NCBI GenBank assembly: GCA_902629465.1 | Contig: CACOQX010000001.1 | Span: forward strand, 17,632 to 81,631 | Source of the DNA: an uncultured SAR86 cluster bacterium | GTDB lineage: Bacteria > Pseudomonadota > Gammaproteobacteria > Magnimaribacterales > AG-339-G14 | Reading direction: 5' to 3' | Length of the DNA: 64,000 bases | Part shown: positions 35,897 to 58,532 of the stretch, one piece after another | Numbering within the stretch: the first letter of the stretch is position 1 | How the letters are laid out: every line of letters starts with the position of its first letter | Translations under genes and position numbers: made by a program | Notes under the pieces: model-generated | What the model was told of the DNA's origin: nothing | Databases searched by the model: none | Seen by the model: only the letters and a program-made list of their open reading frames with translations

Positions 35897-37090
35897 TTAC
35901 ATTTTATCATCTAAATATCTACTTTTTTCTTCATGCTGGAAGTCAGGAAGGATATCAAAAAAAAGTTTTAATATGTCTCGTTTAGTCCACGTTCCTTTTT
36001 CAGATAGTTTTTCTAATGAATTTAAAAAATAAGTCATTGACTCCTTATTTGAAGCCGTCTTATTTTTTATAACCCCAATAGATTTATATGTTTCCAAATC
36101 AAGAATCTCTGATGAATCATAAAATTCTTCAATAAATTTCTCTCCAGTTGTATCACTTTGTTCAAAATAACATGGCCACTTACCCTTTGAAATAAGATCT
36201 TCCGCATTTCTTCTTGCCTCTTCTTCCGTGCTGCATTCATATGGTTCATAGCCTAAAAGAGAAATGTATTTTTTTGCAATGGTTGTAAAATCATATAAAT
36301 CAGATTCTTTAGACATTTTGGGAAAGAAAATATCTCTATTTTCTCCCATGAGTCCTGATAAGACACATAGCTCTCCGGATTCCTCTTTTGTCAGTAAGTA
36401 TCTCTTTATATTTGTTGGTGCAGTTATAGGTTGTTTTTTTTTGTATCGTTGATTAAACCCAAAAAGAAGAGAGCCATCAGAAAAAGCAACATTTGCGAAC
36501 CTTGCAGAGGAAACATTATGAGAGATGCCTTTATCAAATAACATTCTTTCCATTATGATTTTTGTTGCTCCCATGAGATTCTCAGGATTGGTTGCCTTGT
36601 CAGTAGATACAGAAAAATAATTTTTCAAATTTTTATCTTTGATCATCTTAAGAAGTTTAGATAAAAAGGTTATGTTTACCTTAATCATCCTCATTAAGGA
36701 ATAAGGATCCTTTTCACTTCTTACATGCTTTAAGGCAGAAAAATTAAATATGTAATCATATGGTTCAGTTTCATTAAAAAATACTTCAAACTCTCTTGAG
36801 CCGTAGTCAATGCAAAAAGTTTTAAACTCTCCTGTTATGTAACCTTTGCTACTTCTTAAATCTCTCACGAGTTCAACTAAATTATTTTCGCTGATATCGA
36901 CAACATTAAGAACTTTTGGGTTTCTAAAAAAAATTTTCTTTGTTACGGCTTGTCCGATTGTTCCAGCGGCTCCGATAATTAAAAAACTTGAATTCTCTAT
37001 CTCTTCAGACAAGAGATCTTCATTTTTTTTAAAATCTTCTTTAAATATTGAACGATTTCTGTTTAACAAATCATATGGGTTGATATTCAA
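35897..37090 (-). CDS. soluble WbpM/PglF/CapD-family NDP-HexNAc 4,6-dehydratase
   Basis: 397 aa with Rossmann IIGAAGTIGQA and STDKATNPENLMGATK, i.e. Met in place of the SDR Tyr, as in WbpM/PglF (from memory). Confidence 0.75.
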   Translation of the reverse strand: MNINPYDLLNRNRSIFKEDFKKNEDLLSEEIENSSFLIIGAAGTIGQAVTKKIFFRNPKVLNVVDISENNLVELVRDLRSSKGYITGEFKTFCIDYGSREFEVFFNETEPYDYIFNFSALKHVRSEKDPYSLMRMIKVNITFLSKLLKMIKDKNLKNYFSVSTDKATNPENLMGATKIIMERMLFDKGISHNVSSARFANVAFSDGSLLFGFNQRYKKKQPITAPTNIKRYLLTKEESGELCVLSGLMGENRDIFFPKMSKESDLYDFTTIAKKYISLLGYEPYECSTEEEARRNAEDLISKGKWPCYFEQSDTTGEKFIEEFYDSSEILDLETYKSIGVIKNKTASNKESMTYFLNSLEKLSEKGTWTKRDILKLFFDILPDFQHEEKSRYLDDKM

Positions 37091-37092
37091 TG

Positions 37093-38280
37093 TTAATCTC
37101 TCGTTCCTTTAAAAACATTTGTTTTTGAATTTTTATTATCCTTGTCAATTAACTTCTTATAAACATTCAAGTAACTTGAACCCATTTTGTCAGCTGTAAA
37201 TAGGTCGTCAAATCTCTTCCTAGCATTATTTCCAAATTTTGTGGCAAGTTCTTCATTTAAATAAATTTTTTTCATTGCATTTGCAAGTAAGGTAGGATCC
37301 TCAGGATTTACCACTATTCCAGAATAATTATCTAGATTTGCAAATGAAGTCCCAGTTTCTATTTCGCATGAAACTAAAGGCTTACCATAAATAGCTGCTT
37401 CCAAAAGAACTATTCCAAAAGCCTCTGATCTTAAGTGAGATGGCAGAACAAGGCCTTTTGAGTTTTTTATAAGGCAGATTTTTTCGGTATTCGATACTTC
37501 ACCAATCATCGAGATATTTTTATACTTTTTAGATTCCTCAATATAAAATTTTCCCGTATCTAAATCCCCTGGTTGAGTGGCACCAGCAATAGCAATTTTG
37601 AAATCAACTAAATTAGATGCAGGAAATAAAAAGTCTAAACCTTTATATTTTCTGAGGACGCCAATAAAGAGAAAATATTTATTTTTTTTTAATTTAAATT
37701 TATTTAGAATTTTTTTATCATCAATTTCATTTTCATGTTTCTGATATTCTTTTTTATCTAATCCTAAACTAATGTATTTTAACTTTTTTTTATTTTTTAT
37801 ATTTTTTAATACTTTACTAGAATCTAAATATCTTGGAGATGTTGCAACAATTATATCCATTCTATTCAACATAAATTTCATTAATGGGTTATAAAGTTTG
37901 CTTAAAATTCCCTTTCCGACAACATCAGAATGATAAGTCATAACAGATTTTTTCCTGATGAAAGAAAAAAGATAAAGCAGATCTGCAAAAGGCCAAGGAA
38001 AATGAAAATGGAGAATATCTGCCCATTTCACTAATGCTCTAAATTCTAAAAAAGAATCTATAAGTCCCATATCATTGTGGCCCGGTGAAAACCAAGATTT
38101 AGACCTAATAATCTCTCCCTCTTCTGTTTTAATTTTTTTTGGCGAAGGATTTTTTGATAAACAAAATATTTTTGATTCTACTCCGTGTTTTGAAGTATGG
38201 AGAGAAATCTGTCTAATGGCTTCTTGAAGGCCCCCCGGGGTATCTGGAAAATAGGCTTTATAAATTTGAAGAACTTTCAT
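37093..38280 (-). CDS. GT4-family (group 1) glycosyltransferase
   Basis: Start taken at MKVLQIY. Has the EX7E region SEAFGIVLLEAAIYGKPLV. Confidence 0.8.
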   Translation of the reverse strand: MKVLQIYKAYFPDTPGGLQEAIRQISLHTSKHGVESKIFCLSKNPSPKKIKTEEGEIIRSKSWFSPGHNDMGLIDSFLEFRALVKWADILHFHFPWPFADLLYLFSFIRKKSVMTYHSDVVGKGILSKLYNPLMKFMLNRMDIIVATSPRYLDSSKVLKNIKNKKKLKYISLGLDKKEYQKHENEIDDKKILNKFKLKKNKYFLFIGVLRKYKGLDFLFPASNLVDFKIAIAGATQPGDLDTGKFYIEESKKYKNISMIGEVSNTEKICLIKNSKGLVLPSHLRSEAFGIVLLEAAIYGKPLVSCEIETGTSFANLDNYSGIVVNPEDPTLLANAMKKIYLNEELATKFGNNARKRFDDLFTADKMGSSYLNVYKKLIDKDNKNSKTNVFKGTRD

Positions 38281-39022
38281 TTTTCTCAAAAAAAACCATT
38301 GCGGTAGATGGAAATATAAACTGCAGAAAAGGAAAGAGACTCATTATTAAATAGTAAAGAGTTTCTATGAATCCTAATCTTGAATGGAAATAAGGTGTAT
38401 ATATTATTTTAAAATCAAGTTTTTCTTGAGTTGCCATTTTTTTTAAATCGCTCGGTATCAATAAATCTTCTCTAATTTCTGGTCTCTTTTTGTTGACTCT
38501 CCAAAAAGCAAGAGGGTACCAAAATTTCTGCGTAACTGGCTCAAATATATACACAGCACTTCCTCCTTTTTTTAAAATTCTAGAAAGTTCTTTAATAGTT
38601 TCTTTGTGAGTAATGAAGTGATGTGCAGATGCAAAAGTAAAAATGAAATCTGTTGAATTATCATTTTCTTTTGTTTTTTCACTTAAACAACTATATTTGT
38701 GGTCAACTTTAACATCAAACAGCTTTTCCCAATCTGTAACTGACTCCAAAGCAAAAGAAGATATATCTGTTGTAGTGATATGAAGATTTGGATATTTTTT
38801 TTTTAAAATGCAGGAAGCCCAACCTTGGCCTCCCCCAAGTTCTAAAACTCTTTTTTTATTTGTAAAATTTATATTTAAAATATCCAATGAGTCTAAGAGT
38901 ATCTTACCCATGGAAATTTTTTCCAAGACCATTCTAAGAGAATTTGCACCAGGCTTTTCTTCTTCTGAAAATTTCCAGAAAAGAATTTCTTTTTCCCTTA
39001 TTTTTTTTAATTTATCTTTCAA
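38258..39022 (-). CDS. class I SAM-dependent methyltransferase
   Basis: 254 aa with motif I VLELGGGQGW. Confidence 0.75.
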   Translation of the reverse strand: MKDKLKKIREKEILFWKFSEEEKPGANSLRMVLEKISMGKILLDSLDILNINFTNKKRVLELGGGQGWASCILKKKYPNLHITTTDISSFALESVTDWEKLFDVKVDHKYSCLSEKTKENDNSTDFIFTFASAHHFITHKETIKELSRILKKGGSAVYIFEPVTQKFWYPLAFWRVNKKRPEIREDLLIPSDLKKMATQEKLDFKIIYTPYFHSRLGFIETLYYLIMSLFPFLQFIFPSTAMVFFEKNESSSNL

Positions 39023-39927
39023 ACTAAATTTTCTATCATATTCAACATGATGAATGCGTCATCTTCAAAAGAGTCCTTTCTATTTTCATTTTGATTTTTG
39101 CAGTAGGATAAAAATTCTTCAATCATTATTTCAAAAGGGTCTTTTATAACGATCCTTTTCTCATGAATATTACTTTTTAAAAAGAAATTTAGGCATTTCG
39201 AAGAATCAATAAAGAGGATTCTCTCATAAAAATCTTCATTAATCTTAAAAGAAAAAATTTTTTTTTGATTTTTTTTGTTACTAAAAAAAAACTTAACTTT
39301 CACATCGTTATAAAAAAAAGACGCTGAAAATTCGGTTTTTGTTATTTTTTTTTCAAATAATGAAATTTCTCCTCGGCCGACTAATTCTAATAACATAGCA
39401 AGGCCATGAGGCATTAAATCCACACCAATATTTGAATAAGTATTTGTACCATTAGTATGAAAGTTGAATTCAAAAGTTTTTATAGATTTATATCTCTTAA
39501 TTTGAGAAATATAAAATTTACTTGAGGTATTAACAAATAAAGATCTATTTTTGTGTTCTCTAAGAAATTCCAAACTTTCTAAAAAGTCTTTTTTACTTAG
39601 ATTTGAGTTCCAAAATAGAGGCTTTTCACAAAGAATATTTATTTTATGATTAAGCAGCTTCTTTAAATAAAAAAAATGCATTTCGTTTGGTACGCATAAA
39701 CTTACCGTATTTACTGAAGACGATTCAAGTAAATCATCAATACTATAATATGGCTTGGCATCCATCTTATAAATCTGGTTGAGATTGTTTGTAGTTGAGA
39801 GAGAAGATTTTTCTGAGCTTCCTAAAATAGAAGAAATAAATATTTTATTTTTTTTTAGTATCCGCGCATGGACTGAACCAATACCACTTGCACCAATCAA
39901 AGCATAGTTTATTTGAGCTTTTTCCAT
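39019..39927 (-). CDS. Gfo/Idh/MocA-family oxidoreductase
   Basis: 302 aa with N-terminal ALIGASGIG and the EKP motif (ILCEKPL). Confidence 0.75.
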   Translation of the reverse strand: MEKAQINYALIGASGIGSVHARILKKNKIFISSILGSSEKSSLSTTNNLNQIYKMDAKPYYSIDDLLESSSVNTVSLCVPNEMHFFYLKKLLNHKINILCEKPLFWNSNLSKKDFLESLEFLREHKNRSLFVNTSSKFYISQIKRYKSIKTFEFNFHTNGTNTYSNIGVDLMPHGLAMLLELVGRGEISLFEKKITKTEFSASFFYNDVKVKFFFSNKKNQKKIFSFKINEDFYERILFIDSSKCLNFFLKSNIHEKRIVIKDPFEIMIEEFLSYCKNQNENRKDSFEDDAFIMLNMIENLV

Positions 39928-39948
39928 ATAGATATTAATTTATTTATT

Positions 39949-40926
39949 TCAAATCTTTTTATTCTTCATGAATTGATATGTTATTTCTATTCCTGTCCTG
40001 ATGTCAGTTCTGAACTTCCAATTTAGTTCTTTCTCAATAAAGGAGCAATCAGAAATGCCAGCAAAATATGCATCTCCTGATACTGCGGAAACATTTTCAA
40101 TATTTGCTTTTGATTCTGAGATTTCCTCACAAATCTCAATAATTTGATTCGTTGAGGTTTTTACTCCAGTGCCAATATTAAAAGTTCTAAAATCCCTTGG
40201 AGAAAGTAGAATTTTGAAAATCGCCTCTACAGCATCATCAATATAAAGCCAATCTCTTACGGCCTCTCCATCACCATATTTCTCGATTTTTTCTCCAGTT
40301 ATAATAGAATTGAGAACCCTCCAAACAAACATATCATGCCTGCATCTAGGACCATACATTGGCTGCATTCTGGTAATAGAAAGAGGAATATTTGTATTAA
40401 AAAAATTACAATAAAATAAACTCTCTGCAGCGGCTTTGGTTGCGCCATATGGGTTTATAGGTCTAAATAAATCTGTCTCTCTTATAAATGCGTCAGCTGA
40501 ACCCTTTTCTCCTATAGCGCTTCTGCTTGAAACAAAAACAATATGCTCTAGAGAATTGGCATTTTTGAGAGAATCAATAACATTTTGACTTCCATGCACA
40601 TTAGTTTCAATAAAATCATGAGGAATTAACATACTTAATCTATCCATCACTAAAGAGGCACAATGAATAATAAAGTTAGGGTCTTCTTTGATGATAACTC
40701 CTGAAATCTCCTTTCTATTTCTAATATCTGATTTGTAAAATTTAAAATTCTTAAGCTCTTGCGATTTTTTTTTTAAAATCTTCAAGTTTTGTTCTTTTTC
40801 AGTGGAATCAGTAGTTTCGGAATTAAGTATATCTACGACAATAGTTTCATAACCCAGTTCTATGGCCTTAATGGCTAAATGACTTCCAAAAAAACCTGCC
40901 CCACCAGTAATAAGAATTTTTTTCAT
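39949..40926 (-). CDS. NAD-dependent NDP-sugar epimerase/dehydratase (extended SDR)
   Basis: 325 aa with ILITGGAGFFGSHL, YGATKAAAE and GDGEAVRDWLYIDD. Epimerase versus 4,6-dehydratase cannot be resolved by eye. Confidence 0.85.
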   Translation of the reverse strand: MKKILITGGAGFFGSHLAIKAIELGYETIVVDILNSETTDSTEKEQNLKILKKKSQELKNFKFYKSDIRNRKEISGVIIKEDPNFIIHCASLVMDRLSMLIPHDFIETNVHGSQNVIDSLKNANSLEHIVFVSSRSAIGEKGSADAFIRETDLFRPINPYGATKAAAESLFYCNFFNTNIPLSITRMQPMYGPRCRHDMFVWRVLNSIITGEKIEKYGDGEAVRDWLYIDDAVEAIFKILLSPRDFRTFNIGTGVKTSTNQIIEICEEISESKANIENVSAVSGDAYFAGISDCSFIEKELNWKFRTDIRTGIEITYQFMKNKKI

Positions 40927-41975
40927 TTAGCAAAAGATTTACAAAGTAATTTTTTAAGCTGATTCTTTTGCAAGCTAGAGCTGTACTTTGTCACGATAGG
41001 ATGAATCTCACCTGAAAGTTTTTCATTTATTCTAGTTGCTTTTTTAATTAAAGAATTGATGTCTCTTATTTGATAAGGAGAAAAATAATGCGCATAATCT
41101 TCGCAAACTTCTCTATGAACTTCTATATCCGAAGCAGCTACAGGCGTTTTAAAATAGAAAGCTTCTAAAGGAGGAATGCCAAATCCTTCATAGAATGAAG
41201 GATATATTAAGCATTTTGCATTAATGTAACATGCTGACAAAGCTCCTCCTTTTAAATGGCCTGTATATATGATTTTTTCTGATTGGTAGGACATTGTAGT
41301 AGCTTTTTCATTGAAGTGAGAATATTTGTTTCCTACTATGACAAGGTCTTCGCTTATATTTTCTTTTAGGTATATTTCTATTAATTGAGATAAGTTTTTT
41401 CTAGGATCATTACTTCCAATAGCTAATATATATTCTTTTCCTGACAAAATTTCAGGCAATAAAGGCTTTTCTGTTTCTCTAAATAGATGATCGACTGTAT
41501 TATTCACAATCATCACGTCAGAAATATTGTATTTTTCTTCAAATTCTTTTTTTGTAAACTTACTTACAGCTGCAATTTTTAAATTCCTCCTAGAAACTAA
41601 ACTAAATGCTACCCTATAAAAATACCTATATAGCAAACTATAAAATTTAGGATATTTTAAAAAAGAAATGTCATGAACAAAATAGATTATCTTTTTATAA
41701 ATCAAAGAAGGAGCCCCACAAAAACTAATTAAAATAGAATTTGTGAAAATGCAATAAAGGGGGAGATCGATTTGCTCCCATAAATGCCCCTTAAAAATTC
41801 CAAATTGTTTAATATTAAGCTTTTCTTTTAAATTAAGATCAATTTTTCCTTTTGGAGCTAGATATGTAAATTCGTAGTCTTCCATGCTATTAAGCGCTAA
41901 GGAACATTCTTCGGCAAACCTTTGCACTCCTGTTGTTTCTTGGGTCGCAAACCTTGAATTAATTACAATTTTCAA
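40923..41975 (-). CDS. GT4-family glycosyltransferase
   Basis: 350 aa, YEGFGIPPLEAFYFKTPVAASD. Confidence 0.8.
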   Translation of the reverse strand: MKIVINSRFATQETTGVQRFAEECSLALNSMEDYEFTYLAPKGKIDLNLKEKLNIKQFGIFKGHLWEQIDLPLYCIFTNSILISFCGAPSLIYKKIIYFVHDISFLKYPKFYSLLYRYFYRVAFSLVSRRNLKIAAVSKFTKKEFEEKYNISDVMIVNNTVDHLFRETEKPLLPEILSGKEYILAIGSNDPRKNLSQLIEIYLKENISEDLVIVGNKYSHFNEKATTMSYQSEKIIYTGHLKGGALSACYINAKCLIYPSFYEGFGIPPLEAFYFKTPVAASDIEVHREVCEDYAHYFSPYQIRDINSLIKKATRINEKLSGEIHPIVTKYSSSLQKNQLKKLLCKSFAK

Positions 41976-43327
41976 TTTAGAGATTCTTCTGAAATAATTT
42001 TTGAAACTATATCTTTAGCAGTTGTTTTGATAGAAGGTCGTGAAAAACCAGATAAGAATTTATTGTAATCTAACAATATTGAATCATCCAGATTGATTAA
42101 ATGATTAAATATTTCATCAGGGCTTCTAATTATATTTTTGAAAAGATTTTTGGAAAGAATATCTAAATGCTGATAATTGGCTAATCTTTCAAAAAAAAGT
42201 GAATGTTTAGAAAATGAATTTTTTAAGAAGTTTGCATCTAAATGTAATATAGGTTTATTAGAGAAAGCGAATTCAAGCGTATATGTTGAGCCTGCACTTA
42301 TCAAAACGTCTGCTTCAAAAAAATCTGCTATCTTTTTTTTAGCATTTCTTTCAAAAGATATATTTTCATTTTGATTCCCTAACCTTGGTATGTTTGAGAA
42401 ATTATGATGATCAAAAATTTCAATTAGAGGATTATCTGCTAGTTTTTTATGAAGGATTTTTTTTCCCTTGGAAGGATATCTCCTAAAAATAATTTTGAAA
42501 TTTGGTACTTTATTTTTTAGGAGATCTGCCAAATCACTTATAAAATTAACTTCTTTTTCAAACATAATCTCATCAGATTCGGGAAATACACCTGCATATA
42601 AAACTTTAATTTCTTTAGAATAACTTTTTTGTAAAGAATTGTTTTTTAATGATTTTAAAAATTCTTCTTCTTCAAAAAGATAATCATGCATTAAGGAACC
42701 TGATATGTGTATTTTCTCCTCTTGAATATTGTAATGCTTGATGAGTTCATTTTTGTTTATGTAGTTCCAAACAAAATAACCGTCTGAAAATCTATTTAAA
42801 GTAGAGTAATGAGTGTTATCCCAAGAATAGACTATGCTAAAAATTTTTCTTGCTTCTTTTCTCGCATAAACAATTAATGGGTTCAAATTTAGAGTATGTC
42901 TTAAGTTTGCGTCTACAACACATATATCGTTTTTATTAATGTAATTACTATAATTTTTTCTAGAATATAAAAGTTTACAGATTGAGCTATAGTAAGGAAG
43001 AAGTTTAAGCGTACTCAATAAATATTTTACTTGAGCCAAAAGGCTAATAATCACTTTAAACTTTCTGTAATAGTTTCTCTTAAAAAACTCCTTTTCTTGC
43101 CTAGTTTTAATGTTTTTGTAAAACATTAAAAAAAATTTTTCTACTGCAGTCTGTTTATGATTAAAAAATAAATGCTTACATGGATAATCTTCATCCAAAT
43201 GGATATTAGTTACTACAGTGACATTAAATTTTTTTTTTAAAAAAATTAAGAGAGAGATGATATTGGGATTTAAAGCATCTAAGGTAAAAAAAACTATTCT
43301 TTGAGATTTAGGATTGTTTTGTTTCAT
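41972..43327 (-). CDS. orphan protein, possibly GT-B-like transferase
   Basis: 451 aa, soluble and Lys/Asn-rich. The C-terminal segment DVLISAGSTYTLEFAFSNKPILHL is reminiscent of TagF/KpsS-type transferases. No confident family. Confidence 0.45.
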   Translation of the reverse strand: MKQNNPKSQRIVFFTLDALNPNIISLLIFLKKKFNVTVVTNIHLDEDYPCKHLFFNHKQTAVEKFFLMFYKNIKTRQEKEFFKRNYYRKFKVIISLLAQVKYLLSTLKLLPYYSSICKLLYSRKNYSNYINKNDICVVDANLRHTLNLNPLIVYARKEARKIFSIVYSWDNTHYSTLNRFSDGYFVWNYINKNELIKHYNIQEEKIHISGSLMHDYLFEEEEFLKSLKNNSLQKSYSKEIKVLYAGVFPESDEIMFEKEVNFISDLADLLKNKVPNFKIIFRRYPSKGKKILHKKLADNPLIEIFDHHNFSNIPRLGNQNENISFERNAKKKIADFFEADVLISAGSTYTLEFAFSNKPILHLDANFLKNSFSKHSLFFERLANYQHLDILSKNLFKNIIRSPDEIFNHLINLDDSILLDYNKFLSGFSRPSIKTTAKDIVSKIISEESLN

Positions 43328-44666: not shown

Positions 44667-44670
44667 TTTT

Positions 44671-48720: not shown

Positions 48721-48724
48721 TTAA

Positions 48725-50103: not shown

Positions 50104-51212
50104 ACAATCTCAAAAGAGGGAATCCATTTATTATCAATCTTTTCAAATAAGTCTTTGTTGGCCCATTTATCTATAACTTCGTTAAATTCATCTTTGCTCA
50201 TTTGGAAATACTCTAAGTATTCATCTAAATACTCTTCGGGCAACTGGTTATCATAAATATTTACCAATTGAATCGCCTGTTCCCTAGTCATAGCTCCCCT
50301 TCTAATATCAATTCCCGCATCTTGGGTAGCTCTTCCAAATCCAAATTTTAGATACATTAAGTAGGTATGTAAGTCATAAAGAACATTATCGTTCTGCGCG
50401 AAATTTGTATAAGTTCCGGTATTTTGTGATTCTCTTTCTTGAAGTCCACAATTCTCCTTAGCTATAAGGTAATTTCTATAAGGGTCCCAAGCCTCAAAAT
50501 ATGACCAATGTGCCATTTCGATATTCAAATTTGTCTCTGGAAATTCCCAAAAATAAAGGTCCTCTTTTGAAAGATTTTTATAAGTTACGTCATGATGTTT
50601 CTCTAAATATATTTCTTTAGTAAATTCAGGAGAAAAAGTTGCAGAGTATTTTGAAAAATTTGATCCACCATACTCAATTTCTCCATCTTCTCCATACATG
50701 ATAAGAGAAATCCCAAAATTACTTGCAACTCTTGAAACAGCTGTAAATATTGCTGTTGTCCATCCATAAAGGGGTCTTCCTTGCTCAATGAATCCTCTTT
50801 TATTCATCTGCATGAGAGTTTCATAGGGAAGGTTAACTTCGATAAGGGGAAACCCACTTTTTTTAAAATTCTCTAAATTTATAAAGCCAATTTCTGATCT
50901 AGTAGGAGGATGAACTGTTATACAAAGTGGATTGAGGCCGTATCTATTTTTGCATGTATAAGCCACGTAACTTCCATCTTTACCGCCACTAACTGGGACT
51001 AAAATATCAAATGGAGAGTCGTTTTTGTGTTTTTTAATTAATTCTAAAAGTTCTTTTTCTCTAGATTCCCAATCAATCTTCTCCTTCTCTTTTGACCACT
51101 TACAAGCATTACAAACACCATCCTCATCAAACTCAATTCTTGGTCTAGTAGACATGTTCAAACAAGATGAACACCAAAAAAATTGTTTCTCGTTATTATT
51201 TTTAGAATTCAT
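50100..51212 (-). CDS. N-acetyl-sugar amidotransferase (WbpG/PseA family, PP-loop)
   Basis: 370 aa with an N-terminal Cys4 cluster (CSSC...CNAC) and the PP-loop VPVSGGKDGSY. Confidence 0.8.
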   Translation of the reverse strand: MNSKNNNEKQFFWCSSCLNMSTRPRIEFDEDGVCNACKWSKEKEKIDWESREKELLELIKKHKNDSPFDILVPVSGGKDGSYVAYTCKNRYGLNPLCITVHPPTRSEIGFINLENFKKSGFPLIEVNLPYETLMQMNKRGFIEQGRPLYGWTTAIFTAVSRVASNFGISLIMYGEDGEIEYGGSNFSKYSATFSPEFTKEIYLEKHHDVTYKNLSKEDLYFWEFPETNLNIEMAHWSYFEAWDPYRNYLIAKENCGLQERESQNTGTYTNFAQNDNVLYDLHTYLMYLKFGFGRATQDAGIDIRRGAMTREQAIQLVNIYDNQLPEEYLDEYLEYFQMSKDEFNEVIDKWANKDLFEKIDNKWIPSFEIV

Positions 51213-51219
51213 AAGTCTT

Positions 51220-51933
51220 TTAAAGAAATTTTTTTGATAAATATTCTGCTATGTAGAAGTCTTCTATTGAATCTATCTCAATGTTCTTAAATTTTGGCAT
51301 TTCTTTGGCAATGGTACGCTCATGATGGAAACTTCTTTTTTTTAACAAAGTCTCAGTTTTGGAGATATAAATACTACCATCTAAAAAATATAAATCTTCT
51401 AATTCTTGTCTTCTTAATGCTCTGAATTTTTTAAATCCTACATAGGGTTTCATAAATGAGTTTTTATCAATTTTTATCGAAAAACTTGGATGAGAGTCAA
51501 TTAATTTGCCAACAGATATAAGAGCATCTGCATTTTTTCTTTTTTTATGAAGGAGATTAAGACAATTTGAGATATCTTCAGAGGTAGTCAATGGTGAAGT
51601 AGGTTCAAGCATTACAATATATTCAAAATATTGATTCTGTTTTTGATAAAATTTTATTGCATGTTCCAAAACATCAATTGTGGTCGCTGAAGAAGAAGAA
51701 ATATGTTTTGGTCTCAAAAAAGGAGCTTCAGCCCCATATTCAATTGCGAGTTTCTGATACTCTATAGAATCAGTTGATACTAAAACTTTATCTATAATCT
51801 TATTTTCTTTTAATGCCTTTAATGGCCAAGTTAAAAGAGGATGTCCTTTAAAATTTAAAATATTTTTATTTTTTAAACCCTTTGAACCTGATCGGGCAGG
51901 TACAATTCCTAATACTTTTTGTTTTTTAATCAT
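51220..51933 (-). CDS. neuA: CMP-nonulosonic acid synthetase (acylneuraminate cytidylyltransferase family)
   Basis: 237 aa with GIVPARSGSKGLKNKN. The symbol is family-level only. Confidence 0.85.
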   Translation of the reverse strand: MIKKQKVLGIVPARSGSKGLKNKNILNFKGHPLLTWPLKALKENKIIDKVLVSTDSIEYQKLAIEYGAEAPFLRPKHISSSSATTIDVLEHAIKFYQKQNQYFEYIVMLEPTSPLTTSEDISNCLNLLHKKRKNADALISVGKLIDSHPSFSIKIDKNSFMKPYVGFKKFRALRRQELEDLYFLDGSIYISKTETLLKKRSFHHERTIAKEMPKFKNIEIDSIEDFYIAEYLSKKFL

Positions 51934-52985
51934 TAAGAAAATTTAATTTCTTCTGCCTTAGAAATATCTTCAGGTTTTCCAACATCTACCCAAGATTCAT
52001 AAATTGGATAAATGATAGTTTTATATTTCCTATCCTTTAACCTAAGAAATAAATCCGGCATATCACAATACTCATTTTCACTTAATTCCGATATGCATCT
52101 GTGGTTTAGTACATATACTCCCGCATTTATCAGGCTGTAAGAAATTGGTTTTTCTTCAAAGCCGGTAATATTAAAGCCATCCGCATGAACGACTCCATAA
52201 GAATTTTGGTGCATAAAACTGTTGACTGCCATAGTTGCATGAGAATTTCTTTTTGAATGAAATCTAAGTATTTTATGATAATTCAAGTTTGTAAGAACAT
52301 CAGCATTTGTAACTAAAAATGGTAAATCCGTATCTGGTCTAAACAAAGAAATAGCTCCAGCTGTTCCTAAAGGCTTTCTTTCCTCAATGAATTTTATGTT
52401 GACTCCGAAATTTTCATTTCTCTCTAAAAATTCTACAATTCTATTTTTTAGATAATTTAAAGAGATATAAAAATTTATGAATCCTTCTTCTTTTGCATTT
52501 TCTATTATTCTTTGAATTAAGGGTTTTCCAGAAACTTCGACCATTGGCTTAGGCTTATCTTTAGTAATGCTTCCAAGTCTAATACCCTTACCGCCTGCCA
52601 TTATTAAGAAAGGATTATCAATTTTTGAACTGACTCCCGATGACATCAAATCAAAAACTCCAGCGACTTTACTATCTTCAATAATTGGTAGTTTTTGAAT
52701 TTTTTTATTTAGCATTAATTCTTTTGCGGCTTCAAAATCAATTGAGTTATTGGTGATAACAGGGTTTGGATTCATAGCTAAATATACGGGAGATTTTAAA
52801 TCTATCTTTTTTAGTATTGCTCTCCTAATATCCCCATCAGTAAGAGTACCAATGAATTCATCATCTTTGTTAACAACCAAAAGTATCTGTAGCCCACTTT
52901 TTTCAAGAGTTTTTATAGCCTTAATAAGAGAGGATTCTTTAAAAATTAAAGTTTTTTTCCATTTTTTTTCTTCTAATTTATTCAT
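51933..52985 (-). CDS. CBS-pair + sugar-1-phosphate nucleotidyltransferase (PtmE-like)
   Basis: 350 aa with N-terminal tandem CBS domains, then MAGGKGIRLGSITKDKPKPM. Confidence 0.8.
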   Translation of the reverse strand: MNKLEEKKWKKTLIFKESSLIKAIKTLEKSGLQILLVVNKDDEFIGTLTDGDIRRAILKKIDLKSPVYLAMNPNPVITNNSIDFEAAKELMLNKKIQKLPIIEDSKVAGVFDLMSSGVSSKIDNPFLIMAGGKGIRLGSITKDKPKPMVEVSGKPLIQRIIENAKEEGFINFYISLNYLKNRIVEFLERNENFGVNIKFIEERKPLGTAGAISLFRPDTDLPFLVTNADVLTNLNYHKILRFHSKRNSHATMAVNSFMHQNSYGVVHADGFNITGFEEKPISYSLINAGVYVLNHRCISELSENEYCDMPDLFLRLKDRKYKTIIYPIYESWVDVGKPEDISKAEEIKFS

Positions 52986-52994
52986 GTTTTAAGA

Positions 52995-53588
52995 TCAATT
53001 ATTATCTTTCACCAAAGATGCAGCTTTTATAAAGGAATTTTTTCTTAATTTTACTCCTTGTATTACTGTGGACCCCGCTCCAATATAAGAGTCGTTACCA
53101 ATATCTACGTCCCCACATATGCAAGAAGAAGGCGCAACATGAGTATTTTTTCCAATTAAAGAATTATGATCAATTGAAACTCTTGAATTTATAATACAAT
53201 TATCACCTATCGAAACCTTTGTTTGAACTATTGAGCCAGCCATTATTTGAATACCTTCACCTAAAACCACATCTTCTGCTACATATGAAAAAGGGTGAAT
53301 TAAGTTAGGTATCGAAAATCCATTTTTCTTTATTTTTTCGAAGACTTCATTTCTTTTATTTTCTGAGGGTTTTGCTCCCAATCCTAAGGCAATATTGTAT
53401 TTGGATGCATCTAATTTAAGCAAAGCGTTATCGCTGCCTAATACTTTTAAATCATTCCATGATTCATTATTTTTCACTTCTTCAAAGACAGGATCGCAAA
53501 CTCCTTCTATAGGATATTTTAAATCTTTCAAAAGCCTACAAACGACCTCGCCGTGACCACCAGTACCCAGAATAATAAAAGGCTTCAT
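52995..53588 (-). CDS. NeuD/PglD-family sugar N-acetyltransferase
   Basis: 197 aa with an N-terminal Rossmann-like ILGTGGHG followed by hexapeptide repeats. Confidence 0.8.
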   Translation of the reverse strand: MKPFIILGTGGHGEVVCRLLKDLKYPIEGVCDPVFEEVKNNESWNDLKVLGSDNALLKLDASKYNIALGLGAKPSENKRNEVFEKIKKNGFSIPNLIHPFSYVAEDVVLGEGIQIMAGSIVQTKVSIGDNCIINSRVSIDHNSLIGKNTHVAPSSCICGDVDIGNDSYIGAGSTVIQGVKLRKNSFIKAASLVKDNN

Positions 53589-53597
53589 ATTTTTTTA

Positions 53598-54671
53598 TTA
53601 ATCGATTGAATCATTCTCAGAATAATTTTTATTGGATATCGTGCCGAGGAGATTCCAGTAATTTTCTGGATACAAACCAGTCTCTGCTCTAATGATTTTC
53701 AGGTTTTTAGAAGAAAATTTTTCCCCCTTTTTAATTTTTCTAGATGCCACAATTTTCTTTCTTACTTTGTCTCTAACTTCCCACTCATTCTTTTGAGTTT
53801 TTTTTATACCATCGCCTAAAGCATTTTCTAAAGATCTTATATTCTCTATCAGTCTCTTTAATTCTTTGGGCTCTAAAGAGGAGCTGTGGTCTGGACCATC
53901 TAAATTTTTATCTAGGGTTAAATGCTTTTCAATAATTTTTGCACCCAAAGCTATTGCTCCTATAGGTAAATGTATGCCTAGAGAATGATCTGAAAACCCA
54001 ACCGTAATCTTGAAAGCTTTTTTTAAAGTTTTGATAGCATTTAAATTTATTTCATTATCTTTTGCAGGATAATTTGATAGGCAGTGAAGAATTGAAACTT
54101 TTTTTCGAAATTTTTTTATATCCAACTTAGACCATAAAGCCCAAACTTCGTCTAAATCTTTAGGCTGAGTCTCAGAAATAAATCCGTGATTTAAAACTGC
54201 CAAGGCGAGTTCAATATCTGAGAGATTGGACATTCCTGTAGAGAGGATTACATTTTTCTTTAAATTTGCAATTTTCCATAAAAATGGAAGATTATTTATT
54301 TCTCCTGAGGGAATTTTAAAGAAAGGAACCCTTAAAGAATTAAGAAAACTGAGACTTTCATAGTCAAAAGGAGTTGAGATAAAATCTATTTTCATTTTTC
54401 TAGCATTCGAAATTAAATCTTTATAGAACGACTTTGGTAGTTCAAGTTTTTTTAGCATTTCATACTGCGAAGAAACATCTTTTGAAGATTTTTTTTGATA
54501 ATTAGCTTTCTCTAAAGTCTTGCTTGTGATCTTTTTTGCATTAAAAGTTTGAAATTTAATTGCATTTGCACCGGCCATTGCAGCTTCTTCTATTAACCTA
54601 ATAGCCATAGCTTTGTCACCGTTGTGATTTACACCCGCTTCAGCAATGAAATATGTTTTATTTTGGTTCAT
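53598..54671 (-). CDS. neuB: nonulosonic acid synthase (NeuB/LegI family) with C-terminal SAF domain
   Basis: 357 aa with FIAEAGVNHNGD and DAIKFQ-like (NAIKFQTF). The symbol is family-level only. Confidence 0.9.
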   Translation of the reverse strand: MNQNKTYFIAEAGVNHNGDKAMAIRLIEEAAMAGANAIKFQTFNAKKITSKTLEKANYQKKSSKDVSSQYEMLKKLELPKSFYKDLISNARKMKIDFISTPFDYESLSFLNSLRVPFFKIPSGEINNLPFLWKIANLKKNVILSTGMSNLSDIELALAVLNHGFISETQPKDLDEVWALWSKLDIKKFRKKVSILHCLSNYPAKDNEINLNAIKTLKKAFKITVGFSDHSLGIHLPIGAIALGAKIIEKHLTLDKNLDGPDHSSSLEPKELKRLIENIRSLENALGDGIKKTQKNEWEVRDKVRKKIVASRKIKKGEKFSSKNLKIIRAETGLYPENYWNLLGTISNKNYSENDSID

Positions 54672-55339
54672 TTAATTTCTTTTAAAAGCATGAAGGATTC
54701 AGCTGCCAATGTTCCGGATTGTGCTCCTCTCAAGACTGCAAGAGCATTTATTGCCTTTTCACTTCTTGGAAAAGGAAATTTATTTATTTCTGATTTGTAG
54801 ATTTTCATAATAGAAATTTTTTTCTTGATAAATTTTGAAATATCTATGAAAACATTCGGATTAAAAGTTTCTGAAAAGCTTTTTACTGAACCAAAATCTG
54901 TTTCGGAAATAGTTTCATAAACATAAAGAGATTTTAATTTTTTATTCCGAAAAGTTTTTGATGCGGCAATAATAGAATTGAAAACAACTTTATGATCACT
55001 GTGCACGTCATTTTTAAATGGAATGTACATGATTTCTGGCTGAATTTTTTTTAATACTCTAGAGAATTCTTTAATAATTTCTGCCATAGGTTTAGTATCT
55101 AAATAAGAGGTTTCAAAACCAGATCTTAAAACCTCATTAAATTTATAGGCTTTTGAGACTTTTTCTATCTGTTTGTTCCTTTCGATGATTTCTTTTTCAG
55201 AATAACCTCCTTGTGAATTCATCTCAGTGACTATTAACCAATAGATTTCATCACCTTGTGCTTGATGCTTTAAGATGGTTCCTCCGCACCCTAAAGTCTC
55301 ATCATCTGGATGAGGTGCCACTACTAAAACTTTACTCAT
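54668..55339 (-). CDS. PIG-L/LmbE-family de-N-acetylase
   Basis: 223 aa with VVAPHPDDETLGCGG and HSDH. Confidence 0.85.
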   Translation of the reverse strand: MSKVLVVAPHPDDETLGCGGTILKHQAQGDEIYWLIVTEMNSQGGYSEKEIIERNKQIEKVSKAYKFNEVLRSGFETSYLDTKPMAEIIKEFSRVLKKIQPEIMYIPFKNDVHSDHKVVFNSIIAASKTFRNKKLKSLYVYETISETDFGSVKSFSETFNPNVFIDISKFIKKKISIMKIYKSEINKFPFPRSEKAINALAVLRGAQSGTLAAESFMLLKEIK

Positions 55340-56237
55340 AAAAAAATTCTCCTTCGATTTTATCTTTAAATTGTTTTTTGCTAAATGAGATGGCCATGTC
55401 TCCAGTTTTCACAATCAGTTCTTTAGAATTGTTTTTAATTATTCTTCCGGGTTCTTGGTTATCTATTTTTATATTCACTATTTTTGAGTTACTTACAAGA
55501 AATTTTTTTTTATTGTAGATGAAATAAGCTCCGGGATATGGATCTGCAAGTGCTCTTACCAAATTATAAATGTTTTTACTATTCATTCTCCAATCTATCT
55601 TTCCATCAATTTCACTTCTTTTTCTCCAAACATTAGAATCTTTTTTTAGTTGTCGAATAGGATTTATTGAATCGTTAATAAAATTATCAATAATTTCATT
55701 TATCTGAACGGGAATAACCTTGAGAACCTTATTGTATAAGTCCTTTGCGTAATCCTTATTAGAAATTTTGATGATTTTTTGATTTAAAATGTCTCCCGCG
55801 TCAGGTTCTTTAGTTAAGAAGAAGAATGTCGAAGCTGTTTTCTTTAATCCTAGTACTAAAGCCCATATTAGGGGATGCCTTCCTCTATTTTTTGGGAGTT
55901 CAGCTGGATGAAACCCAATAATTTTATTTTTATAAAAACTTAAAACAGGTTCTTTAATGATTTTTGACCAACCTATGACAAATACTAAGTCTATTTTGTG
56001 ATTATCTAAGATTTTTCTTTGAACATTGAAATCTTTGATATTTTCTTCATAAAAGAAATCAATCTTTTTTTTCTTTGCCTTCTTTCCAAGATCTACAAAA
56101 TCTGAATTGAAGGTTGATTTTTTTGAGCAAATAAGAAGTTTAAAATTTATCTTTTTATTTTCTAAAAGCGCATCAAAGGCAATGTCGCTTGATTTGACGC
56201 AGCCTATAAGGCAAACATTTAGTTTTTTAAAGATCAT
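55332..56237 (-). CDS. formyltransferase-family protein (Fmt/ArnA N-domain-like)
   Basis: 301 aa with IIGFHPAELPKNRGRHPL and EPDAGDIL, plus a C-terminal Fmt-like beta-barrel domain. Confidence 0.75.
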   Translation of the reverse strand: MIFKKLNVCLIGCVKSSDIAFDALLENKKINFKLLICSKKSTFNSDFVDLGKKAKKKKIDFFYEENIKDFNVQRKILDNHKIDLVFVIGWSKIIKEPVLSFYKNKIIGFHPAELPKNRGRHPLIWALVLGLKKTASTFFFLTKEPDAGDILNQKIIKISNKDYAKDLYNKVLKVIPVQINEIIDNFINDSINPIRQLKKDSNVWRKRSEIDGKIDWRMNSKNIYNLVRALADPYPGAYFIYNKKKFLVSNSKIVNIKIDNQEPGRIIKNNSKELIVKTGDMAISFSKKQFKDKIEGEFFYE

Positions 56238-57381
56238 GAAATTCTTTTAAAAGAATATTTTGAAGATTTATTTTAGAAATTATTTTATGTATTTTTTTAG
56301 ATGCCCCTTTTTTACCATAAGGAGTTTCTTTCCTATTAGCAATATTTTTAAATTCTTTAGAAAGACCTTTTTTAATAGATAAAAAGATTTGTTTTGAATT
56401 ATAAGTTGAATGCAAAACAGATGGTGCCTTTATCCTTCCTTGTTGTCTTACTCCGATATCTAAACTCGGAGTACCAAGATAAGGTGCCTCTATTATCCCA
56501 CTCGAAGAATTGCCAATGACCAAATCGGAAATGTTCATTAATGATGAATAAATTTTTGAACCAAGAGACTCAAAATAGAAAATGTTGTTATTTTTTTTGA
56601 ATTTTAATCTTTGTGTTTCTTTTCTTATTTTTTCTCCCCAGGTATCTGCATTATTGCCAGTAATTACGATGGTGCCATCAAACTTTAAGAGATTTTTTAA
56701 AATATTTTTAAAAATGATTTCTTCATCGATACTACCAAGAGTTACAGGATGAAAGGTAAATAAAAAAATAGGAGGTTTCAAAGTAATTTTTAGAATTTTT
56801 TCAAGTTCGTTTGTATTTAGAAAATTACTTCTTATCAAATTATCATATCCCAAAGCGCCAACATTCCAAATAGAACTTGGTTTTTCACCAAGCTGAATGA
56901 GTCTTTTTTTGTATTTTTGACAGGATACAAAGTGAAGATGTGACATTTTTGAAATACTATGTCGAATTGCTTCATCAATTAAGCCAAAAGTGCTTTCTCC
57001 TCCATGAATATGTGCAATCGGGATTCTGTGTATCATTGCAGCTTGTGCAGCTGCAAGAGCCTCATATCTATCGCCTAAAATGATTAATAAATCTGGCTTT
57101 AGAGAGAATAAAACTTCAGATGTTTTCCTTACTGCCAGAGACAAAGATTTAGAAATACCCTTTGGTGAATCATCTTTGGTGAGGATTTTAAATTTAGAGC
57201 TAATTTTAAAGTTATCCTTCTGAATTTGTTTCCAAGTGCTGCCAAACTTCTTTTCTAGATGAGATCCTGTAACAATCATATTAAAAATTATATTTTTATC
57301 TTCTTTGACGATTTCCATGAGAGGTTTCATTAGCCCGTAGTCAGCTCTACTTCCTGTAAAAAAAGCTACATTTCTTTTCAT
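56227..57381 (-). CDS. neuC: hydrolysing NDP-HexNAc 2-epimerase (NeuC/LegG family)
   Basis: 384 aa with LGDRYEALAAAQAA and HIHGGE. The symbol is family-level only. Confidence 0.85.
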   Translation of the reverse strand: MKRNVAFFTGSRADYGLMKPLMEIVKEDKNIIFNMIVTGSHLEKKFGSTWKQIQKDNFKISSKFKILTKDDSPKGISKSLSLAVRKTSEVLFSLKPDLLIILGDRYEALAAAQAAMIHRIPIAHIHGGESTFGLIDEAIRHSISKMSHLHFVSCQKYKKRLIQLGEKPSSIWNVGALGYDNLIRSNFLNTNELEKILKITLKPPIFLFTFHPVTLGSIDEEIIFKNILKNLLKFDGTIVITGNNADTWGEKIRKETQRLKFKKNNNIFYFESLGSKIYSSLMNISDLVIGNSSSGIIEAPYLGTPSLDIGVRQQGRIKAPSVLHSTYNSKQIFLSIKKGLSKEFKNIANRKETPYGKKGASKKIHKIISKINLQNILLKEFHDL

Positions 57382-58532
57382 TTTTTTTTAATTATGGGAG
57401 AACTAGGAAGATTTATGAGCCTTTCCCAAATATTTTGCGAAACGGTTAAATCCGTTGGGAAACAATTTTTGAACATTGGCAAGGCATTCATTAAACTCCA
57501 GGCGGGCCTTACATAAATTTTTCTTTTATTTAAATAATTGATCATTCTTTTTCTTTCTTTAATGTTTGGAGCCAAAATAGCATTTAACCAATAATTAGAA
57601 CGTGCTTCCGGAGGTTCTTTAAAAAATAGATAATCGCTTCCGTCATAAAAATCTTTATATAAATTTGCAATTTTTCTCTTAGAAGAAATATATTTATCAA
57701 TTTTTTTTAGCTGGGATATGCCTAAAGAAGCATTTAAGTTAGGTAACCGATAATTATATCCAATAGCGTCATGGAAAAATTCTAGAGGATTTTTTTTTGC
57801 TGTGGTGGATAAATGCCTTGATAATGTTCCCGCTTTTTTGGACTTACATATAAGTGCTCCACCCCCTCCAGTAGTAATGATTTTATTTCCATTAAAGCTT
57901 AAAGTTCCAAAGTTACCAAATGTCCCCGTATGCTTATTTTTATAAGTAGTGCCTAGACTCTCCGCGGCGTCTTCAATAACTTTTACATTTTTTTTTCTAC
58001 AAATATTTATAATTTTGTCTATCAGTGCAGGATGTCCATAAGTGTGCATTACAATCAAAGCTTTTATTGGTCTTTTAGACTTTTTTTCTAAACAAGTTCC
58101 AAATTTATTCATTACAGTATGTTCGTCAAAAAATTCTTTTAATTTTTCGGGGCAGATGCTGAGAGTTTTAGGTGAAATATCAATAAATATTGGGTCTGCC
58201 AAGAGGTAAGAAATACAATTTGCAGCCGCAACGAAATTAAATGCTTGTGAGATAACAAAATCATTTTTCTTTACTCCGCTCATGATGAGCGAAAGATGTA
58301 AAGCTGAAGTTCCATTTACAGTAGAAACTACATCTGTTGCATTTGTATATTTCTGTAACTTGATTTCAAATTTCGAAACATTTTTTCCGTAGGTAGAAAC
58401 ATATGAACTTTTTATGGATGATGTAACAGAACTTATGTCCTCTTTAGAAAAATAAGGTTCATGAAGGCTTATGTCTTTCTTGCCTCTGTAAATTTCTCTT
58501 ATAAAGCTTTCTGAATCTTTTAAAACATTCAT
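57378..58532 (-). CDS. DegT/DnrJ/EryC1/StrS-family sugar aminotransferase (LegC/PglE-like)
   Basis: 384 aa with the PLP-lysine region SFNGNKIITTGGGG. Confidence 0.9.
   Translation of the reverse strand: MNVLKDSESFIREIYRGKKDISLHEPYFSKEDISSVTSSIKSSYVSTYGKNVSKFEIKLQKYTNATDVVSTVNGTSALHLSLIMSGVKKNDFVISQAFNFVAAANCISYLLADPIFIDISPKTLSICPEKLKEFFDEHTVMNKFGTCLEKKSKRPIKALIVMHTYGHPALIDKIINICRKKNVKVIEDAAESLGTTYKNKHTGTFGNFGTLSFNGNKIITTGGGGALICKSKKAGTLSRHLSTTAKKNPLEFFHDAIGYNYRLPNLNASLGISQLKKIDKYISSKRKIANLYKDFYDGSDYLFFKEPPEARSNYWLNAILAPNIKERKRMINYLNKRKIYVRPAWSLMNALPMFKNCFPTDLTVSQNIWERLINLPSSPIIKKK

Follow-up and report, generated by a model that had tools for sequence, protein, structure and literature searches.

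We analysed a 64,000-nucleotide stretch of contig CACOQX010000001.1 from an uncultured SAR86 cluster bacterium (64 kb, hereafter the window). In it, 26 genes form a single array on the minus strand (34199-59455, about 25 kb) that carries a predicted pathway for a legionaminic acid (Leg), a sugar of the nonulosonic acid (NulO) type. Gaps between the genes do not exceed 24 bp, many genes overlap, and every open reading frame (ORF) of the array is intact and tightly packed. The 5′ boundary is a tRNA-Leu(taa) detected by ARAGORN (59461-59547, minus strand), which lies downstream of pgsA and 6 bp from the first gene, wzz; a tRNA-Cys (59621-59694) is located with it between pgsA and the first island gene. 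The neighbourhood of tRNA genes is a typical hot spot for variable islands. The far border is rnd (RNase D). The G+C content is 30.0% in the island, compared to 34.1% in the left flank. Flanking genes (rnd, a thiolase gene and thrS-infC-rpmI-rplT-pheST) are syntenic with SAR86 single-cell genomes (loci L048, L008 and L057) and with related metagenome-assembled genomes. We conclude that the region from tRNA-Leu to rnd is an island of surface-polysaccharide genes that varies between strains. Its host is an abundant marine gammaproteobacterium, uncultured, with SAR86-like synteny.

Core enzymes of the pathway

Eight ORFs of the array had been picked out in an initial annotation. All were found exactly where it placed them, on the minus strand, and curated models returned the families it had assigned, with E-values (1e-50 to 1e-137) that exclude chance. 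Its gene list was correct for the members named, and left out a formyltransferase-like/PIG-L pair, a WbuX/HisH/HisF trio and a candidate NulO transferase. The core genes follow the order legC-neuC-[fmt-PIG-L]-neuB-pglD-ptmE-CMP-transferase (CMP, cytidine monophosphate).

The first of them encodes a LegC-type pyridoxal phosphate-dependent aminotransferase (57378-58532), which scores 457.7 bits on model TIGR04181 (cutoff 420) and only 206 bits on the PseC model (cutoff 423.5). Its best match in the PDB is PglE (1O61, 215 bits). It falls in a LegC/PglE-like clade, where aminotransferases of gammaproteobacterial Leg operons are closest (44–49% identity). The NeuC/LegG-type hydrolysing 2-epimerase (56227-57381; TIGR03568, 438.7 bits) has as best PDB match 5XVS, the Acinetobacter baumannii hydrolysing 2-epimerase for guanosine or uridine diphosphate (GDP/UDP)-di-N-acetylbacillosamine (diNAcBac), with 265 bits, compared to 153 bits for human GNE and about 40 bits for non-hydrolysing epimerases.

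The NeuB-family synthase, assigned to the LegI type (53598-54671), scores 437.3 bits on TIGR03569 (cutoff 399.65) and 273.8 bits on the PseI model, under the cutoff of 340. A neighbour-joining tree places it as sister to a group of 30 NeuBs that come from Leg operons of the class called A below; no biochemically characterised LegI was part of the reference set, and the LegI-type placement rests on operon context. It is 43–49% identical to these 30 proteins, compared to 31% for Neisseria meningitidis NeuB, 36% for PseI and 40% for SpsE. Its motif KIPSGEI is that of the Leg-operon set; the corresponding residues are KIASFE in PseI and KIGSGE in N. meningitidis NeuB. The Gly of the SGE motif, which is Phe in PseI (residue 132 in the numbering of PMC7371886), supports a Neu/Leg enzyme. 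A further active-site rule of the same work (PMC7371886), which expects Tyr at position 184 in N. meningitidis numbering, was tried and set aside: the window has Ser, as PseI does, the Leg-operon set has Thr, and the rule is not general. The SAF domain initially attributed to this synthase was not recovered as a separate Pfam match at 1e-5, but the C-terminal domain aligns with those of PseI and N. meningitidis NeuB.

The three remaining core genes encode a PglD/NeuD-type left-handed beta-helix (LbH) N-acetyltransferase with a predicted LegH role (52995-53588; TIGR03570, 185 bits against a cutoff of 160.8; PF17836, PglD_N), a PtmE/LegX-like CBS-nucleotidyltransferase (51933-52985) and a CMP-NulO synthetase (51220-51933; PF02348, CTP_transf_3), which reaches 156 bits on TIGR03584, below the cutoff of 205.7. 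The proposed likeness of the nucleotidyltransferase to PtmE was confirmed by its CBS and NTP_transferase domains and by homology to genes in the PtmE position, with 30–38% identity to the PtmE-like genes of 33 Leg-operon loci. Its six best PDB matches are all guanylyltransferases (HddC, GMPPB). PtmE/LegX is a marker of Leg clusters and is required for Leg synthesis (bioRxiv 10.1101/2022.03.25.485807).

Family-model scans found no PseG, no GNAT PseH and no PseB-type enzyme among the island proteins (61 bits on the PseB model, compared to a cutoff of 407). The legionaminic rather than pseudaminic (Pse) route had been proposed from the gene families. This assignment holds because of the placement of LegC, NeuB and NeuC and the absence of these Pse enzymes from the island: NeuB groups with Leg-operon NeuBs and NeuC is nearest to the diNAcBac epimerase, outside the clades for Pse or true sialic acid (Neu5Ac). 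Judged by homology, NeuB, NeuC and LegC are Leg-type enzymes and not Neu5Ac or Pse enzymes, and the island holds the complete enzyme set, as had been claimed.

A soluble 4,6-dehydratase of the 3PVZ/Elg1 subfamily

The first step is assigned to a soluble 397-aa nucleoside diphosphate (NDP)-N-acetylglucosamine (GlcNAc) 4,6-dehydratase (35897-37090, minus strand; PF02719) of the 3PVZ/Elg1 subfamily, predicted to act as the C5-retaining enzyme of the Leg pathway. Its motif STDKATNPENLMGATK has the form TDKx8Mx3K, with Met in place of the Tyr of short-chain dehydrogenases/reductases (SDRs); the signature TDKxnMx3K is listed for the UDP-GlcNAc enzymes PglF and WbpM (PMC8987622). The protein keeps 142 of 160 near-invariant family columns. 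It aligns over its full length with PDB 3PVZ, a 399-aa ‘UDP-N-acetylglucosamine 4,6-dehydratase’ (460 bits, 54% identity), and scores 73 bits against PglF. A C-terminal extension of about 110 residues aligns with 3PVZ and not with PglF or other PF02719 structures, and no hydrophobic or transmembrane (TM) segment was detected in the protein. The initial description as a WbpM/PglF-type enzyme thus agrees with PF02719, the Met for Tyr and the motif, and does not extend to orthology (73 compared to 460 bits, no TM segment): neither the membrane anchor nor a close sequence relation is shared with PglF/WbpM.

No other 4,6-dehydratase candidate was found within the window. An extended SDR (the second SDR, 39949-40926, motif VSSRSAIGE...YGATK) had been suggested as an alternative dehydratase. 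This was not upheld, because its SSRS...YGATK sequence is an epimerase/reductase pattern and the dehydratase residues [ST]DE, [ST]DK or [ST]SE are missing (motif table of PMC8987622). Its best PDB matches are GalE (4ZRM), then UDP-glucuronic acid 4-epimerases. No window protein reaches the cutoff (475) of the LegB model TIGR04180, on which the second SDR, with 111.7 bits, gives the only match. The reductase-like SDR that neighbours the dehydratase in the SAR86 locus L008 shares only 22% identity with this protein.

Two genomic contexts of the dehydratase family

At least 580 confirmed stretches of the 3PVZ/Elg1 family are present in GTDB representative genomes. The best 80 loci (L007-L086) were mapped and the island proteins were placed on them by tblastn. 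Two contexts account for 35 loci each. In class A, the dehydratase gene is followed directly by that of a LegC-like aminotransferase, then by pglD, neuB, neuC, a PtmE homologue and a cytidylyltransferase gene; where at least 8 kb is available downstream, the PtmE homologue is present in 31 of 32 loci. In class B, the next gene is a small PglC-like Bac_transf gene, usually with an aminotransferase or a reductase-like SDR gene before the dehydratase, and PtmE lies within 10 kb in only one locus out of 35. The LegC-like aminotransferases of class B are about 42% identical to the window LegC. The two classes are mutually exclusive and separate in a distance tree (nearest neighbours agree in class for 69 of 70), in which 3PVZ itself sits among Vibrio class A sequences. 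Mean dehydratase identity is 76% within class A, 70% within class B and 67% between them, and only four diagnostic alignment columns part the classes (window residues 223, 248, 308 and 310).

The initial annotation had seen a peculiar mix in the presence of a PF02719 dehydratase together with PtmE. This did not stand: since the same pairing is standard in the large class A of Leg operons, it is no oddity of the window island, and Leg operons with PtmE normally begin with a gene of the soluble subfamily of about 397 aa. The question of GDP or UDP as carrier is one of the whole operon class and not of this island alone.

The dehydratase is displaced in a mosaic island

That the dehydratase gene lies physically apart from the remaining pathway genes was confirmed: it is 21 kb from the Leg operon, at the opposite end of the island. 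The place that it holds in related operons is occupied by wzz, the first gene of the array (58529-59455, minus strand), which encodes a Wzz-like chain-length determinant (PF02706, 28.2 bits against a cutoff of 25.5; two terminal TM segments). A Wzz homologue (32% identity) is also encoded upstream of the Colwellia Leg operon L042.

Comparison of metagenome contigs with the window by blastn located a recombination breakpoint at 37140-37150. Five of ten contigs that are 99% identical to the window (L087, L091, L094-L096) lose homology there, about 50 bp upstream of the dehydratase start codon. In L087, genes for an epimerase and a UDP-sugar dehydrogenase are inserted at this point, and its glycosyltransferase gene is 85% identical at the nucleotide level. 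Given this break in otherwise 99%-identical contigs, the separation of dehydratase and operon reflects modular recombination; the breakpoint and the differing island edges in close relatives together indicate that the island is a mosaic. Downstream of the breakpoint, the dehydratase gene, a cytidylyltransferase-cupin fusion (35090-35872; 260 aa, PF01467 and the mannose-6-phosphate-isomerase-type cupin PF01050) and galU (34199-35089) make up a 3′ module common to island variants. It is 99% conserved in L087-L096 and recurs at more than 99% identity in several Tara samples. The fusion is kept beside rnd or galU in variants L087-L096 and L102; L101 has the cupin alone. Genomes with a ThrS 91–95% identical to that of the window have other gene content beside rnd, without a window-type dehydratase, and SAR86 relatives have a class B dehydratase and a PglC-like gene at the same island edge. 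The simplest reading would be that the Leg module, which has no heading dehydratase of its own, relies on the copy resident in the 3′ module that several island variants share.

Among 5.8 billion proteins, a single protein with 87% identity and a few with 60% (the latter in class B context) are the only closer relatives of the dehydratase. The gene lies 7 kb from thrS, and with a single relative above 60% it marks a sharp transition from the conserved core to the hypervariable island. For thrS itself (27112-29040), more than 100 ThrS protein clusters at 90–95% identity were found in marine metagenomes, which indicates a very abundant lineage. Synteny with the window and SAR86 (rnd, the thiolase at 88% identity, a DjlA-like gene) was also seen in contig L054 (PAGT01000012.1, labelled Flavobacteriales bacterium MED779), whose bin label does not seem to fit the genes that it carries. 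A third tRNA of the window, tRNA-Pro (22287-22363), lies downstream of pheT.

Tailoring genes

Between neuC and neuB lie genes for a formyltransferase-family protein, a putative N-acyl tailoring enzyme (55332-56237; PF00551 and PF02911, N- and C-terminal domains), and a PIG-L family de-N-acetylase (54668-55339; PF02585, 80.8 bits; HPDD motif at residue 10). The motif GFHPAELPKNRGRHP of the formyltransferase-like protein is also found in the copies of loci L050 (9632-10474) and L084 (14330-15205), and the PIG-L protein is 45–50% identical to copies in the Leg operons L050, L084, L069 and L081. A Leg-like cluster of Ca. Kuenenia with deacetylase and formyltransferase yields CMP-NulOs with a free or formylated amine (bioRxiv 10.64898/2026.04.20.719630), and 5-N-formyl-Leg is known in Halorubrum (PMC6137143).

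The CMP-transferase gene is followed by those of WbuX (50100-51212; TIGR03573, 334 bits against 203), a HisH-like protein (49492-50103; TIGR01855, 180 bits) and a HisF/WbuZ-like protein (48725-49498; TIGR03572, 191 bits, below cutoff). The same trio is found after the CMP-transferase in L037, L070, L086 and L024, and as an amidotransferase system it is predicted to convert an N-acetyl to an acetamidino group.

Family scans identified next an LbH acyltransferase-like protein (217 aa, 48067-48720), a class III (GSA-aminomutase-like) aminotransferase (46751-48076) and a PtmA-like SDR (45945-46754). The pair formed by the last two recurs downstream of ptmE in L063 (about 17.4-19.5 kb) and L075 (about 18.0-20.1 kb), and homologues of the SDR are present in 10 of the best 80 loci. 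Together, the two enzymes may act on a NulO hydroxyl by oxidation and transamination, or they may make an N-acyl substituent. An aminotransferase 50% identical to the class III enzyme is encoded near a PseI-like NeuB in Candidatus Njordibacter (L011, 163-1461). As PtmF- or GlmU-like partners of the pathway, the 217-aa LbH protein and the window Gfo/Idh/MocA gene described below were looked for in the 80 loci and the E. coli locus, and no homologue was found.

Glycosyltransferases and polymer assembly

A GT-B fold glycosyltransferase (41972-43327, minus strand) is the candidate NulO transferase. Its AlphaFold model has a pLDDT (predicted local distance difference test score) of 94.3; Foldseek retrieved the generic GT-B fold (MshA, TarL, WaaG; TM-score about 0.5), and a profile of the protein gave no match against PDB sequences. 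In its family of 41 aligned members, 8 match NF046086 (the BFO_1060 family) and 13 match TIGR04396. BFO_1060 of Tannerella forsythia is a putative transferase of a NulO derivative (PMC5420450), and the window enzyme, being related to it, is likely a NulO transferase.

Around it, family scans assigned a GT4-family glycosyltransferase (40923-41975), a Gfo/Idh/MocA oxidoreductase (39019-39927), a methyltransferase (38258-39022) and a second GT4-family glycosyltransferase (37093-38289). A Wzy-like polymerase (43308-44666) has about nine hydrophobic segments and scores 42.5 bits on TIGR04370 (cutoff 40). Next to it is an orphan membrane protein of 425 aa (44671-45948) with about 9-10 TM segments and no Pfam or NCBIfam match. 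It has only three homologues among the 5.8 billion proteins (93%, 92% and 33% identity), stands in the position of a flippase or ligase and is a possible flippase. Family scans of the island proteins found no initiating transferase or Bac_transf gene. A candidate for initiation, a WecA/WbpL-like polyprenyl-phosphate N-acetylhexosamine-1-phosphate transferase (13415-14518, plus strand; PF00953, 89.5 bits), is encoded 20 kb outside the island, and a homologue (38% identity) lies directly beside the island in the SAR86 locus L048.

The presence of Wzz-like and Wzy-like proteins points to polymerisation of a repeat unit. The Wzy-dependent polymer that had been proposed is only moderately supported: Wzz and Wzy lie just above their cutoffs, the flippase candidate is without a family match and the island holds no initiating transferase.

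Comparison with known systems

The closest arrangements were found in L050 (Oceanisphaera pacifica) and L084 (Marinospirillum insulare), with the order dehydratase-legC-neuC-fmt-PIGL-neuB-pglD-ptmE-CMP-transferase, which is that of the window for eight consecutive genes. In both, the dehydratase gene directly precedes legC; L084 has a gap of about 1.3 kb between legC and neuC.

The same families in the same order also make up the elg/lea/lga modules (the O-antigen clusters of E. coli O61 and O161, the latter for a Leg derivative, the A. baumannii capsule loci KL5/7/8/12, and Leg clusters of Vibrio and Plesiomonas shigelloides), which lie in Wzx/Wzy-type loci. The elg genes of E. coli O61 (Elg1-Elg7) serve an O antigen with 8eLeg5Ac7Ac, and the lga module of A. 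baumannii is likewise comparable (PMC3628348; PMC7685785). P. shigelloides carries Leg on its flagella, and its cluster holds a 395-aa LegB similar to Elg1 as well as PtmE (PMC4481668). The E. coli O-antigen locus L103 reads, in RefSeq terms, UDP-GlcNAc 4,6-dehydratase, LegC family aminotransferase, neuC, neuB, acetyltransferase, nucleotidyltransferase, Gfo/Idh/MocA and cytidylyltransferase. Window proteins are identical to its products at 53% (dehydratase, Elg1 position), 46% (aminotransferase), 44% (2-epimerase), 44% (synthase), 28% (LbH), 37% (CBS-nucleotidyltransferase, Elg6 position) and 30% (cytidylyltransferase). For the E. coli Gfo/Idh/MocA gene, no window homologue was detected in that position. 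Unlike elg/lga, the window has its dehydratase 21 kb away at the opposite island end, as a divergent allele, and a formyltransferase-like/PIG-L pair between neuC and neuB.

The GDP-linked pathway of Campylobacter jejuni and T. forsythia follows the same reaction logic, and homologues of its LegC, LegG, LegI, LegF and PtmE are present in the window; PtmE implies that GDP-GlcN(Ac) is supplied. However, its LegB is a GDP-GlcNAc-specific RmlB-like SDR (TIGR04180), where the window uses a PF02719 Mx3K enzyme instead. With the route of Legionella pneumophila, which leads from UDP-diNAcBac, made by PglF/E/D-like enzymes, through NeuC, NeuB and NeuA, the window shares a dehydratase with the PglF motif, a PglE-like aminotransferase and a PglD-like acetyltransferase. 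The lipopolysaccharide of L. pneumophila serogroup 1 carries this product in a 5-acetamidino form, which matches the WbuX/HisH/HisF trio of the window. Unlike L. pneumophila, the window has PtmE, and its dehydratase is of the soluble 3PVZ type, not a membrane-anchored PglF/WbpM. Finally, Ca. Kuenenia stuttgartiensis and Halorubrum sp. PV6 have, as the window does, a de-N-acetylase and a formyltransferase gene between early and late Leg genes; the likeness is in gene content, and against it stands the Gly that the window protein has for the catalytic Asn.

The window gene set is thus a member of the known elg/lga class, with local features: the displaced and divergent first enzyme, the deacetylase/formyltransferase-like pair and further tailoring genes. 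In the literature searched, no paper linking NulOs and SAR86 was found.

Proposed pathway and its nucleotide carrier

We consider it probable that the 5′ module is an operon of the elg/lga type for a sugar of the legionaminic acid family, a 5,7-diamino-nonulosonate, and is fed by the dehydratase of the 3′ module, with the GDP route the likelier one. All steps of the pathway are deduced from homology and gene order. The 397-aa dehydratase would produce NDP-4-keto-6-deoxy-GlcNAc, to which LegC would add an equatorial 4-amino group. PglD would acetylate this 4-amino sugar, NeuC/LegG would take off the nucleotide and epimerise C2, NeuB/LegI would condense the resulting sugar with phosphoenolpyruvate, and the cytidylyltransferase would give the CMP-sugar. 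PIG-L may strip one N-acetyl group and the formyltransferase-like enzyme may re-acylate the amine; one N-acetyl could become acetamidino through WbuX/HisH/HisF, and the trio of SDR, class III aminotransferase and LbH protein may modify the sugar further. On account of the PtmE/LegX gene, a GDP-linked route appears more likely.

Several points weigh against this reading. The window dehydratase is an outlier, 52–57% identical to all 80 relatives, which are 67–76% identical among themselves. The class-diagnostic residues were tried as a means of assigning it to the GDP- or UDP-associated class, and it fits neither: at the four columns it has no class A residue, one class-B-like residue and three that are neither. 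By position, it resembles the class B copy beside a PglC-like transferase in SAR86 relatives, where the sugars are presumably UDP-linked. The known GDP-specific LegB enzymes are RmlB-like and belong to another subfamily than 3PVZ (PMC5378307), a LegB-type gene possibly lies elsewhere in the genome, beyond the visible 64 kb, and the literature searched, in which PDB 3PVZ had one unrelated mention, gave no published nucleotide specificity for the 3PVZ subfamily of about 397 aa. Sequence does not predict the N-acyl pattern of the product, nor its stereochemistry at C7/C8: in E. coli O61 and A. baumannii the products of the same core are 8-epi-Leg or other isomers. In the formyltransferase-like protein, Gly replaces the catalytic Asn (G-[FY]-H-P-A-x-L-P, compared to the canonical N-x-H-x-S-L-L-P); with G-[FY]-H instead of N-x-H, the acyl group that it moves is uncertain, and lacking the Asn, the three proteins from the window, L050 and L084 may be a distinct acyl-transfer subfamily.

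A possible, though less probable, alternative is a UDP-linked pathway as in L. pneumophila, in which dehydratase, LegC and PglD would turn UDP-GlcNAc of the ordinary pool into UDP-diNAcBac for hydrolysis by NeuC, and PtmE would be dispensable or have another role. The 35 class B loci speak for it: there, dehydratases of the family and LegC-like aminotransferases stand beside PglC-like Bac_transf genes, nearly always without PtmE, so that both families evidently work without a PtmE-supplied GDP pool. That only four columns separate the two contexts argues against a large change of the nucleotide pocket. The PglC-associated position of the window dehydratase and its catalytic motif, that of the UDP-GlcNAc enzymes (PMC8987622), point the same way, and PglD takes both carriers (PMC5378307). 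Against this, PtmE is intact inside the window operon, is kept in nearly all comparable Leg operons and is most similar to guanylyltransferases, and LegX/PtmE proved necessary in genetic work, both for Leg synthesis by Brevundimonas and for its reconstitution in Caulobacter (bioRxiv 10.1101/2022.03.25.485807).

It is rather unlikely, but conceivable, that the single divergent 3PVZ-type dehydratase is carrier-promiscuous (GDP- and UDP-GlcNAc) and shared by the Leg route and a second 6-deoxy-N-acetylhexosamine route, or that the tailoring set yields an undescribed NulO.

We regard as doubtful, and as lower still in rank, that the dehydratase stands outside the NulO pathway and supplies UDP-4-keto-6-deoxy-GlcNAc for an N-acetylquinovosamine, N-acetylfucosamine or bacillosamine residue, the Leg dehydratase being encoded elsewhere in the genome. 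In SAR86-like relatives, the dehydratase at this edge of the island does come with a PglC-like initiating transferase and with either a reductase-like SDR or an aminotransferase, the gene is kept in island variants with differing upstream content, and the island has a further epimerase/reductase-type SDR, with the WecA-like transferase nearby. However, family scans of the island gave neither a Bac_transf gene nor a second sugar aminotransferase, comparable operons all have the dehydratase adjacent and the 64 kb hold no other candidate. A dual role would be equally possible and compatible with the Leg pathway proposed above.

Pse or Neu5Ac as the product is highly improbable: NeuB and NeuC do reach the cutoffs of TIGR03569 and TIGR03568, models named for Neu5Ac enzymes, and NeuB has Ser at position 184 as in PseI (PMC7371886), but NeuB stays under the PseI cutoff, has Gly where PseI has Phe and is closer to Leg-operon NeuBs than to that of N. 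meningitidis, NeuC is nearest to the diNAcBac epimerase, PseG and GNAT PseH are missing, and dehydratase, LegC, PglD and PtmE would be useless to a Neu5Ac pathway.

Implications

For the dehydratase family, the general point is its split: the Elg1/3PVZ proteins of about 397 aa fall into a class linked to PtmE in Leg operons and a class linked to PglC-like transferases. With one divergent copy of the dehydratase in an otherwise conventional gene set, the window is a convenient test case for the choice between GDP and UDP. If a carrier-promiscuous, shared dehydratase were confirmed, it would provide a natural example of pathway modules that swap the enzyme of their committed first step. For the organism, a gammaproteobacterium that is uncultured and very abundant in marine waters, a legionaminic-type pathway is documented in a hypervariable surface island. 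Islands of this kind are presumed to control recognition by phages and grazers. If the tailoring set acts as proposed, it may give, for example, an N-formyl/N-acetimidoyl or a triamino Leg derivative on a very abundant ocean bacterium.

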